Notes under the pieces: generated by a model
Databases searched by the model: none
Told to the model about the DNA's origin: nothing
What the model saw: the letters and a program-made list of their open reading frames with translations, nothing else
In this document: positions 32,351-59,209 of the stretch, piece by piece
Numbering within the stretch: position 1 is the stretch's first letter
Layout: each line of letters starts with the position of its first letter
Origin: Escherichia phage vB_EcoM-RPN226
Sequence record: OL770073.2
DNA length: 64,000 bases
Strand: one strand, 5' to 3'
Program-made: the position numbers and the translations under genes

Positions 32351-32423
32351 TGGGAATTAGCCAAGTTGGTAAGGCATAGCACTTTGACTGCTAGATGCAA
32401 AGGTTCGAGTCCTTTATTCCCAG
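32351..32423 (+). tRNA. tRNA-Gln (anticodon UUG)
   Basis: Manual fold: acceptor TGGGAAT/ATTCCCA, anticodon loop CTTTGAC, T-arm AAAGG-TTCGAGT-CCTTT. Confidence 0.85.
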
Positions 32424-32424
32424 C

Positions 32425-32511
32425 GCGAGAATGGTCAAATTGGTAAAGGCACAGCACTTAAAATGCTGCGGAATGATTTCCTTGTGGGTTCGAGTCCCAC
32501 TTCTCGTACCA
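32425..32511 (+). tRNA. tRNA-Leu (anticodon UAA), long variable arm, encoded CCA
   Basis: Acceptor GCGAGAA/TTCTCGT, anticodon TAA, T-loop GGTTCGAGTCC, 3' ACCA. Confidence 0.85.
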
Positions 32512-32517
32512 AAGTTT

Positions 32518-32589
<72 letters not shown>

Positions 32590-32601
32590 AAATTTAATTT
32601 A

Positions 32602-32675
32602 CTCCGTGTAGCTCAGTTTGGTAGAGCGTCTGCTTTGGGAGCAGAATGTCGCAGGTTCAAATCCTGCCGCGGAGA
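32602..32675 (+). tRNA. tRNA-Pro (anticodon UGG)
   Basis: Acceptor CTCCGTG/CGCGGAG, anticodon TGG, T-loop GGTTCAAATCC. Confidence 0.85.
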
Positions 32676-32677
32676 CT

Positions 32678-32764
32678 GGAGGCGTGGCAGAGTGGTTTAA
32701 TGCACCGGTCTTGAAAACCGGCAGTCGCTCCGGCGACTCATAGGTTCAAATCCTATCGCCTCCG
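32678..32764 (+). tRNA. tRNA-Ser (anticodon UGA), long variable arm
   Basis: Acceptor GGAGGCG/CGCCTCC, anticodon TGA, T-loop GGTTCAAATCC. Confidence 0.85.
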
Positions 32765-32771
32765 TAATTTC

Positions 32772-32844
32772 GCTGATTTAGCTCAGTAGGTAGAGCAACT
32801 CACTTGTAATGAGGATGTCGGCGGTTCGATTCCGTCAATCAGCA
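32772..32844 (+). tRNA. tRNA-Thr (anticodon UGU)
   Basis: Acceptor GCTGATT/AATCAGC, anticodon TGT, T-loop GGTTCGATTCC. Confidence 0.85.
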
Positions 32845-32850
32845 TATCAA

Positions 32851-32922
32851 GGCCCTGTAGCTGGAAGGTTCAAGCAAGCGACTCATAATCGCCAGATGGT
32901 GGTTCAATTCCACCCAGGGCCA
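32851..32922 (+). tRNA. tRNA-Ile (anticodon CAU, presumably lysidine-modified) or tRNA-Met
   Basis: Acceptor GGCCCTG/CAGGGCC, anticodon CAT, T-loop GGTTCAATTCC; T4 carries tRNA-Ile at this position. Confidence 0.75.
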
Positions 32923-32963
32923 TATTTTGGGAACATAAATACTCTTAGAAATAGGAGATATTT

Positions 32964-33629
32964 ATGTTCCATTACACTTATAAAATAACAAATAAAATTA
33001 ATAATAAAATCTATATAGGCGCTCATTCTACCGAAAATTTAGATGATGGATATATGGGTTCTGGTAAATTATTAAAAAGAGCCCAAGACAAGTATGGTAT
33101 AGAAAATTTCTCTAAAGAAATATTAGAGTTCTTTGACGATAAAACCTCTATGTTTGAGTCAGAAAAGAATATTGTGACTGAAGAGTTTTTAAAGCGCCCT
33201 GATGTTTATAATTTGAAATTAGGTGGTGAAGGTGGTTGGGACCATTTAAACACTAAAGAATATTTGGATAAAAAGAAAGAAGCTTCCTTAAAAGGGGCTG
33301 CTGCTTTTAAAACCAGATTTGAGAACGACCCAGACCTTAAAGAAAAATATCGTAAAATGGGTTCAGAAAGGTTTAAACAGCTTTGGGATAATCCTAAGTA
33401 TAGAGAGAAATTTTTAAATACTAAATCTTTCTTGGGTAAGACCCATACTCCTGAAACTATTAATAAAATGAAAGAATCTCACGCCAAAAATAAACACCAA
33501 CAAGGCGAAAAGAATTCCCAATTTGGTATGATGTGGATTCATTCATTAGATGAAAAAGTTTCTAAACGTATTAAGAAAACTGACCCAATTCCAGAAGGAT
33601 GGTTTAAAGGTCGAAAAATGAAATTTTAA
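32964..33629 (+). CDS. segB: GIY-YIG homing endonuclease SegB
   Basis: 221 aa; GIY-YIG motif YTYKITNKINNKIYIGAHS; located inside the tRNA cluster as T4 segB. Confidence 0.85.
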   Translation: MFHYTYKITNKINNKIYIGAHSTENLDDGYMGSGKLLKRAQDKYGIENFSKEILEFFDDKTSMFESEKNIVTEEFLKRPDVYNLKLGGEGGWDHLNTKEYLDKKKEASLKGAAAFKTRFENDPDLKEKYRKMGSERFKQLWDNPKYREKFLNTKSFLGKTHTPETINKMKESHAKNKHQQGEKNSQFGMMWIHSLDEKVSKRIKKTDPIPEGWFKGRKMKF

Positions 33630-33632
33630 TTA

Positions 33633-33709
<77 letters not shown>

Positions 33710-55065: not shown

Positions 55066-55539
55066 ATGTTATTGACTGGCAAATTGTACAAAGAAGAAAA
55101 ACAAAAATTTTATAATGCACAAAACGGTAAATGCTTAATTTGCCAACGAGAACTAAATCCTGATGTTCAAGCTAATCACCTTGACCATGACCATGAATTA
55201 AATGGACCGAAAGCTGGAAAGGTACGTGGATTGCTATGTAATCTCTGTAATGCTGCAGAAGGTCAAATGAAGCATAAATTCAATCGTTCTGGCTTAAAGG
55301 GACAAGGTGTTGATTATCTTGAATGGCTAGAAAATTTACTTACTTATTTAAAATCCGATTACACCCAAAATAATATTCACCCTAACTTCGTTGGAGATAA
55401 ATCAAAGGAATTTTCTCGTTTAGGAAAAGAGGAAATGATGGCTGAGATGCTTCAAAGAGGATTTGAATATAATGAATCTGACACTAAAACACAATTAATA
55501 GCTTCATTTAAGAAGCAGCTTAGAAAGAGTTTAAAATGA
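55066..55539 (+). CDS. 49: endonuclease VII (Holliday junction resolvase)
   Basis: 157 aa MLLTGKLYKEEKQKFYNAQNGKCLICQREL...; matches T4 gp49 as recalled. Confidence 0.9.
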   Translation: MLLTGKLYKEEKQKFYNAQNGKCLICQRELNPDVQANHLDHDHELNGPKAGKVRGLLCNLCNAAEGQMKHKFNRSGLKGQGVDYLEWLENLLTYLKSDYTQNNIHPNFVGDKSKEFSRLGKEEMMAEMLQRGFEYNESDTKTQLIASFKKQLRKSLK

Positions 55540-56079
55540 CAATTGAAAAAGAAATTGAAGGATTGATTCATAAAACTAATAAAGACCTTTTAAACGAGAA
55601 TGCTAATAAAGATTCTCGTGTTTTTCCAACTCAACGGGACCTTATGGCTGGTATTGTGTCTAAACACATTGCCAAAAATATGGTCCCGTCTTTTATTATG
55701 AAAGCGCATGAAAGCGGAATTATTCATTTCCATGATATTGATTATTCCCCTGCTCTTCCATTTACTAATTGCTGTTTAGTAGATTTAAAAGGAATGCTTG
55801 AGAACGGATTTAAGCTCGGTAATGCACAGATTGAAACTCCTAAATCAATCGGTGTTGCTACTGCAATTATGGCACAAATTACTGCACAGGTTGCTTCCCA
55901 TCAATATGGCGGAACGACTTTTGCGAATGTAGATAAAGTACTTTCTCCTTATGTTAAACGCACCTATGCAAAACATATTGAGGACGCAGAAAAATGGCAA
56001 ATCGCTGATGCGTTGAATTATGCCCAATCTAAAACAGAAAAAGATGTATACGATGCATTCCAAGCTTATGAGTTAACGT
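55536..56079 (+). CDS. nrdD: anaerobic ribonucleoside-triphosphate reductase NrdD, exon 1
   Basis: N-terminal 181 codons of NrdD; exon1+exon2 = 605 aa, the T4 NrdD length; junction inferred from frame, U/G splice rule and 1033-nt intron length. Confidence 0.75.
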
Positions 56080-57112
56080 AAGTCAAGCTCATGTAAAATC
56101 TGCCTAAAACGGGAAACTCTCACTGAGACAATCCGTTGCTAAATCAGCAGTAGCTGTAAATGCCCAACGACTATCCCTGATGAATGTAAGGGAGTAGGGT
56201 CAAGCGACCCGAAACGGCAGACAACTCTAAGAGTTGAAGATATAGTCTGAACTGCATGGTGACATGTAGCTGTTTATCCTCGTATAAATATGAATACGAG
56301 GTGAAACGATGAAATGGAAATTAAGAAAAAGCTTAAAAATTGCCAATTCTGTAGCATTTACCTATATGGTAAGATTTCCTGATAAGTCTTTTTATATAGG
56401 TTTTAAAAAATTCAAAACTATATATGGTAAAGATACAAATTGGAAAGAATACAATTCGTCATCTAAGCTTGTTAAAGAAAAGCTTAAAGATTATAAAGCT
56501 AAGTGGATAATTCTTCAAGTTTTTGATTCTTATGAATCGGCCCTTAAACATGAAGAAATGCTTATTAGGAAATATTTTAATAACGAATTTATTCTTAATA
56601 AATCTATAGGTGGATATAAATTTAACAAATATCCGGATTCAGAAGAACATAAGCAAAAACTTAGTAATGCCCATAAAGGTAAAATCTTATCTTTAAAACA
56701 TAAAGATAAGATACGAGAGAAATTGATTGAGCATTATAAAAATAATAGTAGAAGTGAAGCTCATGTTAAAAATAATATTGGTAGTAGAACGGCTAAAAAG
56801 ACTGTTTCTATAGCTTTAAAATCCGGAAATAAATTTAGAAGTTTTAAATCAGCTGCAAAATTTCTTAAATGCTCTGAAGAACAGGTTAGTAATCATCCAA
56901 ATGTTATAGATATAAAAATAACAATTCATCCCGTCCCAGAATATGTTAAAATAAATGACAATATCTATAAATCATTTGTGGATGCTGCTAAAGATTTAAA
57001 ACTCCACCCAAGTCGTATTAAAGATTTGTGTTTAGATGACAATTATCCAAATTACATTGTTTCATATAAACGGGTAGAGAAGTAGCGAACTCTACTGAAC
57101 ACATTGATGAAG
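56080..57112 (+). other. group I self-splicing intron in nrdD (1033 nt)
   Basis: Non-coding structured flanks (e.g. GGGTCAAGCGACCCGAAACGG...) around an internal ORF; boundaries inferred, not verified by folding. Confidence 0.65.
56309..57085 (+). CDS. intron-encoded endonuclease-like ORF (I-TevIII position)
   Basis: 258 aa ORF wholly inside the nrdD intron; weak GIY-YIG-like N-terminal pattern (FYIGF ... EEMLIRKY); family uncertain. Confidence 0.6.
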   Translation: MKWKLRKSLKIANSVAFTYMVRFPDKSFYIGFKKFKTIYGKDTNWKEYNSSSKLVKEKLKDYKAKWIILQVFDSYESALKHEEMLIRKYFNNEFILNKSIGGYKFNKYPDSEEHKQKLSNAHKGKILSLKHKDKIREKLIEHYKNNSRSEAHVKNNIGSRTAKKTVSIALKSGNKFRSFKSAAKFLKCSEEQVSNHPNVIDIKITIHPVPEYVKINDNIYKSFVDAAKDLKLHPSRIKDLCLDDNYPNYIVSYKRVEK

Positions 57113-58386
57113 TGAACACGTTATTCAGTTCAAATGGACAAACGCCTTTTGTAACAATTACATTTGGTACGGGAACTGACTGGACTGAACGAATGATTCA
57201 GAAAGCAATTCTGAAAAATCGCATTAAAGGTCTTGGTCGTGACGGGATAACTCCTATTTTCCCTAAGCTTGTTATGTTCGTTGAAGAGGGTGTCAATCTT
57301 TATAAAGACGATCCGAACTATGATATTAAGCAGCTTGCTCTAGAGTGTGCAAGTAAAAGAATGTATCCTGATATTATTTCAGCTAAGAACAATAAAGCTA
57401 TCACTGGTTCATCTATTCCTGTTTCTCCAATGGGTTGCCGTAGTTTCTTGGGCGTATGGAAAGATTCGACTGGTAATGAAATTCTTGATGGACGTAATAA
57501 TCTTGGCGTTGTAACACTGAATCTTCCTCGTATTGCATTAGATTCTTATATTGGAACACAGTTCAATGAACAGAAATTTGCCGAATTGTTCAATGAGAGA
57601 ATGGATTTATGTTTTGAAGCATTGATGTGTAGAATTAGTTCATTAAAAGGAGTTAAAGCTACTGTTGCTCCTATTCTTTACCAAGAAGGTGCATTCGGGG
57701 TTCGTCTTAAACCTGATGACGATATAATTGAGTTATTTAAAAACGGTAGAAGTTCAGTGTCCTTAGGATACATTGGTATTCACGAATTGAATATTCTTGT
57801 CGGTCGTGATATTGGACAGGAAATTTTAACTAAAATGAATGCTCGTCTTAAGCAGTGGACTGAAAGAACTGGTTTTGCTTTTAGCTTGTATTCTACACCT
57901 GCTGAAAACCTGTGCTATCGCTTCTGTAAACTTGATACCGAAAAATATGGAAGTGTAAAAGATGTTACTGATAAAGGTTGGTACACTAATAGTTTCCACG
58001 TTTCAGTAGAAGAAAATATTACTCCGTTTGAAAAGATTTCTCGCGAAGCCCCATATCATTTCATTGCGACAGGCGGTCACATTTCTTATGTTGAACTTCC
58101 TGATATGAAAAATAACCTAAAAGGTCTTGAGGCTGTATGGGATTATGCTGCACAACATTTAGATTATTTTGGTGTTAACATGCCAGTAGATAAATGTTTT
58201 ACGTGTGGAAGTACCCATGAAATGACTCCTACTGAAAACGGATTTGTTTGTTCTATTTGTGGAGAAACTGATCCTAAAAAGATGAACACAATAAGAAGAA
58301 CATGCGGATATCTTGGAACTCCTAGCGTTGTTCCATGGAATTTAGGTAAAATGAAAGAAATGGTAAAACGAGTAAAACATGCATAG
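57113..58386 (+). CDS. nrdD: anaerobic ribonucleoside-triphosphate reductase NrdD, exon 2
   Basis: Continues exon 1 frame; C-terminal Cys cluster CFTCGSTHEM...CSICG and glycyl radical region. Confidence 0.75.
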
Positions 58387-59209
58387 GTATTATATAATTT
58401 ATAAAATAACAAATATAATTAATTCAAAGGAATATATCGGTGCGCATAGCACCGATAACATAAATGACGGTTATATGGGGTCAGGAACATTGATTCGTGC
58501 CGCTTTATTAAAATATGGTAGAAAAAATTTTAATAAAGAAATTTTACATGTTTTTGATAATGAAAAACAAATGTATGATAAAGAAGCTGAACTTGTAACC
58601 GAAGAGTATTGTCTAAAAGAAAATACATATAATATTAAACCTGGTGGAAAAGGTGGAACTGCTTATGAACAGACACTTGAACATCGCCACAAAAATAGTT
58701 TAGCAAATAAAGGTAAAAAGAAAACGGCAGAAACTAAAATAGCTATTTCACGTGCTTTAAAGAAATATAAACGTACGCCAGAGCATCAAGCAAATTTAAA
58801 TAAAGCTGTAAGAATAGCTATGAAGCGAAAAGATGTTAGAAGTAAATTAACTGGAGAGCGTTCTGAGAAAGATAAATTATCTATATCAAACGGTGTTAAA
58901 AAATATTACAATTCTTTGAGCGAAGAAGAACGTGAACTGCATCGCAAGCGAATTATTGAAGGTAAAAAGAATTCTCCCATGTCATTGGAATCTAGACAAA
59001 AGCTTTCAAAAGCTTTAAAAGGACTTCAAGTTGGTTCAAAAAATCCAATGTATGGAAAAATTTCTCCAACTAGCAAAACCGTTTCAGTTGACGGTATTAA
59101 ATATGATTCAATTAAAAAGTGCTCAAATGCCATAAAAGTTTCTAGACATCTTATACTAAAACGCTGTAATTCTACTGATGAAGCTTGGAAAAATTGGATA
59201 TTATTATGA
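58379..59209 (+). CDS. GIY-YIG homing endonuclease, SegB paralogue, between nrdD and nrdG
   Basis: YIIYKITNIINSKEYIGAHSTDNINDGYMGSG nearly identical in pattern to SegB N-terminus at 32964; NUMOD-like C-terminal repeats. Confidence 0.8.
   Translation: MHRYYIIYKITNIINSKEYIGAHSTDNINDGYMGSGTLIRAALLKYGRKNFNKEILHVFDNEKQMYDKEAELVTEEYCLKENTYNIKPGGKGGTAYEQTLEHRHKNSLANKGKKKTAETKIAISRALKKYKRTPEHQANLNKAVRIAMKRKDVRSKLTGERSEKDKLSISNGVKKYYNSLSEEERELHRKRIIEGKKNSPMSLESRQKLSKALKGLQVGSKNPMYGKISPTSKTVSVDGIKYDSIKKCSNAIKVSRHLILKRCNSTDEAWKNWILL

Follow-up and report, generated by a model that had tools for sequence, protein, structure and literature searches.

The 64,000-nt stretch of DNA analysed here (the window) comes from Escherichia phage vB_EcoM-RPN226, a T4-like phage (Tequatrovirus), and contains a region in which the gene nrdD lies in two parts around a third reading frame. 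The ORF list places three open reading frames in a row, at 55536..56081 (181 aa), 56309..57085 (258 aa) and 57112..58386 (424 aa, with a GTG start), and confirms the arrangement of a 181-aa and a 424-aa nrdD ORF around a 258-aa ORF reported in a first-pass annotation. The two outer ORFs match successive parts of the Pfam model NRDD, which has 562 positions (positions 1-141 with E 1e-40 for the 181-aa ORF and 146-562 with E 4e-122 for the 424-aa ORF), and are therefore two halves of one gene. The main features of the region are as follows.

55536..56073, + strand, nrdD exon 1: 179 codons plus U, the first base of Tyr180 (from the ORF list and Pfam NRDD)
56074..57106, + strand, group I intron of 1033 nt with terminal G57106 (from Rfam RF00028 and alignment with T4 and intronless alleles)
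56278..56301, + strand, ribosome-binding-site hairpin CCUCGUAU/AUACGAGG, whose 3' arm carries the I-TevII Shine-Dalgarno sequence GAGG (56298-56301)
56309..57085, + strand, I-TevII homing endonuclease gene: 258 aa, located beyond P9, in the peripheral region 3' of the intron core
57107..58386, + strand, nrdD exon 2: the second and third bases of the Tyr180 codon, then Glu181 and residues Val182-Ala605 with the glycyl-radical domain

The last two residues of the 181-aa ORF (L and T) come from intron sequence, the unspliced exon 1 frame continuing through two extra codons, UUA and ACG, to a UAA stop at 56079-56081 in the P1 loop. The agreement of 181 + 424 with 605 is partly a coincidence; the true composition of NrdD is 179 exon 1 codons, a split Tyr codon (U|AU), Glu, and 424 residues from the GTG codon. 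The spliced 605-aa product scores 901 bits with NCBIfam NF006732 (NrdD equivalog; cut-off 657) and 563 bits with TIGR02487 (cut-off 326), matches Pfam Gly_radical (E 5e-25), and aligns end to end with PDB 1h78. Judged by its sequence, which matches full-length curated models including the glycyl-radical domain, the product is an anaerobic class III ribonucleotide reductase. The recommended annotation is join(55536..56073, 57107..58386). Many database records list nrdD as two separate proteins together with a 'homing endonuclease', and two-ORF annotations of this kind usually arise where automatic gene callers take no account of introns.

The intron and its ribozyme core

The non-coding stretch 5' of the internal ORF holds a genuine group I ribozyme core. 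The full Rfam model RF00028 (positions 1-253) is matched at 56038-56269 with a score of 103 bits, where the gathering score is 50 (E 1.4e-25), and the intron is identical to the T4 nrdD (sunY) intron at 1032 of 1033 nt. Both results bear out the first-pass annotation, which had described a 1033-nt group I intron with an internal endonuclease-like ORF and had noted that this is the length of the T4 intron. The sole difference from T4, U for C at 56267, leaves one pair of P9 as G·U where T4 has G-C. In the T4 record the corresponding 2851 nt are annotated as an nrdD gene in two pieces that enclose I-TevII, with a note assigning the intron to group IA. We put at about 0.95 the probability that the element is what its sequence indicates, the textbook self-splicing, mobile T4 nrdD/sunY group I intron with I-TevII, residing in a T4 relative; no evidence contradicting this identity was found in the present analysis. 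The intron is already known, and is among the three classic T4 introns, which have served since the 1980s as models for self-splicing, ribozyme engineering and intron homing. Guanosine-dependent self-splicing of the near-identical T4 intron was reportedly described by Gott, Shub and Belfort in 1986.

The structural elements are listed below.

56067..56093, + strand, P1 hairpin: exon UAUGAGU and intron U56074 paired with the internal guide sequence AGCUCAUG (56086-56093)
56099..56269, + strand, ribozyme core (from the Rfam alignment, the pair list and a covariation count on seven introns)
56099-104/56216-221, + strand, P3
56108-113/56132-137, + strand, P4
56118-121/56125-128, + strand, P5
56138-139/56162-163, + strand, P6
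56145-148/56153-156, + strand, P6a
56169-173/56243-247, + strand, P7 (pseudoknot)
56174-178/56189-193, + strand, P7.1
56197-201/56206-210, + strand, P7.2
56222-227/56231-236, + strand, P8
56252-258/56263-269, + strand, P9, with a GUGA loop
57074..57095, + strand, 3'-terminal intron hairpin GUAGAG/CUCUAC, spanning the stop codon of I-TevII, with an 11-nt tail running on to G57106 (from the fold)

The P1 helix (56067-56074 / 56086-56093) ends in the U56073·G56087 wobble that marks the 5' splice site; over the related introns 86.5% of its cells are paired, three pairs are changed on both sides, and the U·G is kept in six of seven. P2 is absent, since merely 5 nt lie between P1 and P3. A hand-drawn model comprising P1, P3-P9, P7.1 and P7.2 is 94.9% paired across seven related, diverged introns with double changes at 29 of its 58 pairs, whereas slid controls are 35-43% paired with 3-7 such pairs, and none of 500 shuffles reaches the observed values. 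Conserved P3-P9 helices, including the P3/P7 pseudoknot, are thereby backed by compensatory changes. The extra P7.1 and P7.2 helices between P7 and P3', each with 3-4 pairs changed on both sides, are those of subgroup IA, and the last base, G57106, at a junction set by protein and DNA alignment, is the guanosine in which group I introns end.

Beyond the core, the 3'-terminal hairpin has a counterpart at the same place in the diverged intron of Salmonella phage Lv5cm (GCAUGA/UCAUGC), with four of six pairs changed on both sides. P10, found by eye and without statistical support, has at best 3 bp (57108-57110 with 56083-56085; 4 bp in Lv5cm). In work on the sunY intron, the 3' tail was reportedly found to pair at long range with the core; several complementarities of 6-8 nt link the two regions here (e.g. 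56193-56200 with 57089-57096), but the Lv5cm-type intron conserves none of them at the equivalent position. The Lv5cm and Vibrio 184E37.1 introns are not listed by Rfam at the gathering threshold, although both align well by hand.

The splice junction and alternative readings

Frame, intron length and the rule of a U before and a G at the end of the intron are together insufficient to place the splice sites, as they hold equally for two placements 6 nt apart. The first-pass annotation joined the exons after U56079 and G57112, which does remove 1033 nt, in frame, to give 605 aa, and the intron so defined is preceded by U and ends in G; shifting both ends 6 nt upstream (56073|57107) likewise removes 1033 nt and yields 605 aa, so that frame and length cannot choose between them. 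The decision comes here only from homologous proteins, intronless alleles or P1 pairing. Crystallised T4 NrdD (PDB 1h78) and the intronless nrdD genes of RB14, RB69 and KIT06 all read QAYEYEVNTLF, from which it follows that exon 1 ends at U56073 and the intron at G57106; the bacterial homologue 9d3x reads SLEYEINTLF, sharing the E-Y-E-V/I-N-T-L pattern. When the first-pass product is compared with NrdD proteins, the check that the annotation itself had proposed, its junction (QAYELTLNTLF, within ...AYELTLNTLF...) disagrees with T4 NrdD, and both of its sites prove to lie 6 nt too far downstream. The annotation had given a spliced junction at different coordinates as grounds for refutation, and its exact placement fails on that criterion. 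Intronless DNA aligns without gaps only with the 56073|57107 join, the insertion falling between ...TATGA(A/G)T and ATGAAGT.... This sets the splice sites at U56073 and G57106 and the insertion between bases 1 and 2 of the Tyr180 codon. Similarly, this is the only placement in which the U at the splice site forms a U·G wobble within P1; U56079 lies in the P1 loop with no partner G. On protein, DNA and P1 pairing evidence the 56079/57112 junction is rejected, a real intron spliced there being extremely improbable. The spliced junction would be ...UAUGAGU joined to AUGAAGUG..., and the predicted cDNA reads ...GCUUAUGAGU|AUGAAGUGAAC....

It is likewise most improbable that nrdD works in pieces without RNA splicing, the 181-aa and 424-aa proteins assembling in the manner of Aeromonas phage Aeh1, in which nrdA is split by mobE. 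A functional split nrdA has been described for Aeh1 (PMC3653736), and here too both ORFs are open and appear as two proteins in many records; however, such records are typical of intron-blind gene callers, the exact position of the break is occupied by a complete ribozyme core with covariation support, the intron is 99.9% identical to that of T4, where the gene is annotated as a joined CDS, and the in-frame GTG of the 424-aa ORF is Val182 of intact NrdD. The locus might instead be a decayed copy, with a non-working intron or endonuclease and nrdD a pseudogene, for which the T4 nrdB intron, with a large deletion in its I-TevIII gene, offers a precedent (PMC2988022), and the present copy does carry one substitution relative to T4. 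This is scarcely credible given that the C to U change at 56267 still pairs in P9 as G·U, that the I-TevII ORF is uninterrupted and has exactly the T4 sequence, and that both exons are open and conserved.

For the preferred reading, a T4-type intron spliced after U56073 and G57106, the pre-mRNA would fold into P1 and P3-P9, free guanosine would attack after U56073, marked by the P1 U·G wobble, and the released exon 1 would then attack after G57106, joining the exons to give the 605-aa NrdD. For the present phage we infer this course from the near-identity to T4 and from the mechanism established for group I introns; the ORFs, ribozyme match, structure with covariation, junction, T4 identity and exon mosaic (see below) are shown by the present analysis.

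I-TevII and its expression

The segment 56309-57085 has zero base differences from the T4 I-TevII coding sequence. Its product matches PHROG 314 (homing endonuclease; E 8e-29), and its Pfam matches are weak (NUMOD1, and SegE_GIY-YIG with 21.6 bits against a cut-off of 25); searches of NCBIfam and PDB sequences gave no match, so the protein is assigned to its family through its identity with the T4 enzyme that has been studied. Residues 17-31 show a degenerate FTY-x9-YIG motif. I-TevII is listed as a GIY-YIG enzyme, and site-specific double-strand cleavage of the intronless allele is reported for T4 I-TevII (PMC2988022 Table 1); the protein encoded here would be expected to be an active endonuclease.

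The hairpin upstream of the gene folds with -15.5 kcal/mol (z -5.4; 0 of 200 shuffles equally stable), and its 5' arm and loop contain TATAAATA (56283-56290), the T4 late-promoter consensus; hairpin and promoter sequence are both identical to T4. A mechanism combining hairpin and late promoter is described for I-TevI, -II and -III (PMC2988022). In long early transcripts the hairpin could hide the I-TevII ribosome-binding site, and late transcripts starting inside the hairpin at the late promoter would leave it free, a putative timing of I-TevII expression. Throughout the 64,000-nt window TATAAATA occurs 17 times against 10.7 expected, which 8 of 100 shuffles equal; it is not significantly enriched, and its weight therefore comes only from its position and its identity with the mapped T4 region. 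Reviews also describe a homing-site-like 'operator' upstream of I-TevII. Over the whole intron, the best match to the spliced-exon sequence does fall in that part (56284-56310, 15/22), but its score equals the median best of 200 shuffles; the candidate has no support from sequence alone and was rejected.

Proposed homing, the exon mosaic and related introns

In T4, mobility of the nrdD intron and GIY-YIG endonuclease activity of I-TevII are both on record (PMC2988022, PMC1865063). Following the T4 literature, I-TevII would cut intronless nrdD alleles near the insertion site, and repair would copy the intron and a short exon flank into the cut genome. A full-length intron at the nrdD site is found in 68 phage records against 660 records with a matching exon 1, a patchy distribution that fits a mobile element.

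The exons and the intron differ in what they most resemble. Relative to T4, 17 of 538 positions differ in exon 1 and 95 of 1280 in exon 2, compared with 1 of 1033 in the intron, and exon 1 is identical to that of the intronless phage KIT06 at 536 of 538 positions. On either side of the intron, 28 nt of exon match T4, and ~25 nt of exon 2 are set off from KIT06 and RB14 by seven silent differences; the intronless KIT06/RB14-type homing site is GCTTATGAATATGAAGTAAATACTCTCTTT, and the spliced-exon site of the present phage is GCTTATGAGTATGAAGTGAACACGTTATTC. KIT06-like exons combined with a T4-like intron and ~28-nt flanks are what homing with a short co-conversion tract would be expected to leave. 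At the 3' end of nrdD lies a second, unrelated homing endonuclease gene (SegH-like), which may have brought its own hitch-hiking tract. We consider the chances about even that the genome records a recent natural homing event, in which a T4-type intron entered a KIT06-like backbone together with ~25-30 bp of exon per side, and that nrdD is a mosaic of two independent selfish elements. If so, the two-element mosaic would offer a way of measuring how long natural co-conversion tracts are. Beyond correct annotation, the intron itself matters little.

Compared with T4, the gene, the insertion site, the 1033-nt length, the I-TevII ORF and the upstream hairpin with TATAAATA are the same, whereas one intron base (56267) differs and the exons are 3-7% diverged and closest to intronless KIT06. 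Downstream of nrdD, the present phage has the SegH-like gene, of the GIY-YIG type, where T4 has the HNH gene mobC. A second lineage of nrdD introns occurs in Tequatrovirus, for example in Salmonella phage Lv5cm and Escherichia phages TH58, JM10 and vB_Eco_F27. It shares the insertion site, the helices, an I-TevII-like ORF after P9, and a hairpin arm and Shine-Dalgarno sequence before the ORF, but has ~66% nucleotide identity, a length of 1045 nt, an endonuclease that is 56% identical, and compensatory changes in many helices.

Also close are the phage group IA introns of other nucleotide-metabolism genes, among them the T4 td intron with I-TevI, which shares an ORF outside the core, control by late promoter and hairpin, and GIY-YIG homing (PMC2988022). 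The td intron differs in host gene and insertion site; the conserved core is common to both, nt 84-199 of the present intron matching td introns at ~80%. The ORF of td lies in another loop, and a P2 helix is present. The cleavage positions of I-TevI lie 23 and 25 nt upstream of the point where its intron inserts; unlike it, I-TevII is reported to cut downstream.

The nrdD locus and its likeness to T4

The first-pass annotation read three open reading frames (ORFs) of 181, 258 and 424 aa as an nrdD gene interrupted by a group I intron, and all three were found where it placed them. The outer two have complementary matches to the Pfam NRDD model and thus belong to a single anaerobic ribonucleotide reductase gene split in two, with the glycyl-radical domain in the 424-aa ORF. 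The flanking genes are ordered as in T4, with gene 49 upstream and nrdG downstream.

Features of the nrdD locus (window coordinates)
55066–55539: endonuclease VII, gene 49, upstream of nrdD
55536–56081, + strand: nrdD first ORF, 181 aa (ORF call; Pfam NRDD 1–141 of 562)
56309–57085, + strand: inner ORF, 258 aa, I-TevII (ORF call; T4 identity)
57112–58386, + strand: nrdD second ORF, 424 aa, GTG start (ORF call; Pfam NRDD 146–562 of 562)
58379–59209, + strand: GIY-YIG/NUMOD3 endonuclease ORF, 276 aa, between nrdD and nrdG
Downstream of nrdD: radical-SAM activase gene nrdG

In the T4 record nrdD is a two-piece coding sequence that encloses I-TevII and whose span, 2851 nt, is exactly that seen here. 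Base-by-base comparison over this span reveals 113 differences: 17 in the 538 nt of exon 1, 95 in the 1280 nt of exon 2, and a single one in the 1033-nt intron, bearing out both the identity with the T4 nrdD (sunY) intron and its length. This lone change (U56267 for C in T4) converts a G-C pair of P9 to G·U, such that only one P9 base and the genomic background distinguish the element from its T4 counterpart. The T4 intron and I-TevII have been studied since the 1980s, and as every feature examined here coincides with them, the element is already known. The nrdD region is 92–97% identical to T4-like phages; the window as a whole has no exact counterpart among the records of the phage collection, where its top matches are 95–97% over 25 kb. 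A cluster of eight tRNA genes (32351–33706, + strand) corresponds in position to the T4 tRNA region.

Splice sites and ribozyme structure

The first-pass interpretation is right in kind and 6 nt off at each splice site. Its sites, after U56079 and G57112, do preserve the reading frame and remove 1033 nt, as does the pair of sites 6 nt upstream, with predicted peptides of QAYELTLNTLF and QAYEYEVNTLF respectively. Alignment of the spliced product with NrdD proteins favours the upstream junction (56073|57107): QAYEYEVNTLF is present in the crystallised T4 NrdD (1h78 and four other PDB entries), a bacterial NrdD (9d3x) has SLEYEINTLF, and YEYEVNTLF is encoded by the uninterrupted nrdD genes of phages RB14 and RB69 (1818 nt each) and KIT06, whose DNA aligns without gaps to window position 56073 joined to 57107. 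In helix P1 the exon segment UAUGAGU (56067–56073) and intron U56074 pair with the internal guide AGCUCAUG (56086–56093), and U56073·G56087 is the wobble pair; a U·G wobble marks the 5' splice site of group I introns, whereas U56079 falls in the P1 hairpin loop. The proteins, the intronless DNA and the P1 pairing together speak against the downstream junction, and the intron is therefore 56074–57106, still 1033 nt. The sum of 181 and 424 to the 605 residues of NrdD is partly coincidence, since the 181-aa ORF ends in a Leu-Thr read from intron sequence ahead of its stop codon (56079–56081); the 424-aa ORF begins at the codon for Val182. The nrdD coding sequence is join(55536..56073, 57107..58386), and the spliced protein scores 901 bits with the NCBIfam NrdD equivalog models, above the cut-off of 657.

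Public records for EC128, Lv5cm and many other phages enter each exon as a 'ribonucleotide reductase large subunit' protein of its own. The error recurs systematically in the annotation of intron-bearing T4-like phages, in which one spliced gene is missed.

Rfam covariance models identify a single group I intron in the whole window (56038–56269; 103 bits, gathering score 50, E 1.4e-25), in agreement with the first-pass assignment. Helices P1, P3, P4, P5, P6, P6a, P7, P7.1, P7.2, P8 and P9 were drawn by hand on the window sequence; P2 is absent, as P1 and P3 are just 5 nt apart, and P7.1 and P7.2 are both present, as in subgroup IA, the T4 record labelling its own intron group IA. Pairs were counted in an alignment with six related, diverged phage introns (Salmonella phage Lv5cm, Escherichia phages 18-1-2, phi92 and AMO3598, Aeromonas phage TS9, and a Pseudomonas phage td intron). 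Standard pairs occupy 94.9% of cells, compared to 35–43% in controls with the 3' partners shifted by one to three columns, and 29 of 58 pairs have changes on both sides, compared to 3–7 in the same controls; none of 500 shuffles reached the observed pairing values. The structure is thus backed by more than one sequence's fold. A hairpin near the 3' end (57074–57079 with 57090–57095) encloses the stop codon of the 258-aa ORF and is kept in the diverged Lv5cm intron, with double changes in four of its six pairs.

I-TevII and signs of intron mobility

The 258-aa ORF lies beyond P9, outside the catalytic core, and the endonuclease proposed there is I-TevII, base-for-base identical to that of T4. 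It matches PHROG 314 'homing endonuclease' (E 8e-29), scores slightly below threshold for Pfam SegE_GIY-YIG and NUMOD1, and has no match among NCBIfam and PDB sequences. In T4, I-TevII is an active GIY-YIG endonuclease driving homing of the nrdD intron (PMC2988022, PMC1865063).

Directly upstream of the ORF is an 8-bp hairpin (56278–56301; −15.5 kcal/mol with its extension, z −5.4), whose 3' arm holds the ribosome-binding site GAGG, 7 nt ahead of the ATG, and whose 5' arm and loop hold TATAAATA, the T4 late-promoter consensus. The same arrangement is described in a review covering each of the three intron endonucleases of T4, with the ribosome site hidden in long early transcripts and exposed in late transcripts starting within the hairpin (PMC2988022). 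From the identity with T4, we infer similar early/late control in vB_EcoM-RPN226. A proposed I-TevII operator, a homing-site resemblance near the hairpin, matches at 15 of 22 positions, no better than shuffled sequence.

The exons closely resemble those of intronless KIT06 (536/538 and 1241/1280 matching positions), although 28 nt of exon on both sides of the intron match T4, and the first ~25 nt of exon 2 carry seven silent differences from KIT06 and RB14. A T4 intron with short T4-like flanks in KIT06-like exons agrees with homing in which a short tract of exon was co-converted. I-TevII of T4 is reported to cut slightly downstream of the intron insertion site. Exon 1 is carried by 660 phage records, compared to 68 with a full-length intron at this site, 24 of which are at least 99% identical to the window intron; most of the remainder belong to a second lineage of ~66% identity.

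Possible endonuclease-linked tracts and related introns

The 276-aa ORF shares bases with the stop codon of nrdD at one end, and at the other its stop codon runs into the likely start of nrdG (59206). In T4 this position is occupied by the HNH gene mobC, and RB14 and RB69 have no gene there. Some records name the ORF SegH, and mobC was reportedly replaced by segH in several T4 relatives, going by the title of a 2005 paper; about 72 phage records have it at 90% or greater amino-acid identity. The last ~80 nt of nrdD (58305–58386) differ from T4 and RB14 at 31–32 of the 78 final positions, changing the C-terminal residues of NrdD to GTPSVVPWNLGKMKEMVKRVKHA, and are identical to KIT06, EC128 and Lv5cm, all with the SegH-like gene. 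By sequence comparison this looks like a tract co-inherited with the endonuclease gene.

The second intron lineage (roughly 40 records, including Lv5cm at 1496–2540 of its compared segment, TH58, JM10 and vB_Eco_F27) occupies the same insertion site with a 1045-nt intron, many compensatory helix changes and an I-TevII-like endonuclease 56% identical to that of the window. In Lv5cm, gene 49 and nrdD are also separated by an additional ORF of 273 aa (146–967; nrdD start at 958–1200 of the compared segment). The first ~240 nt of Lv5cm nrdD have 14–27 mismatches per 60 nt to the window, compared to 0–5 in the rest of the gene, except for 9 in the exon-junction bin, which suggests a third endonuclease-linked tract at the locus in Lv5cm.

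Closely similar intron cores (70–80% identity to intron nt 14–200) are present in phi92, 18-1-2, AMO3598, Vibrio phage 184E37.1, Aeromonas TS9 and Pseudomonas fMGyn-Pae01, some with an ORF and others without. These split nrdD elsewhere in unrelated phages, after about 289–390 codons, other than that of fMGyn-Pae01, which interrupts the thymidylate synthase gene (td). The nrdD gene of 18-1-2 appears to be in three pieces.
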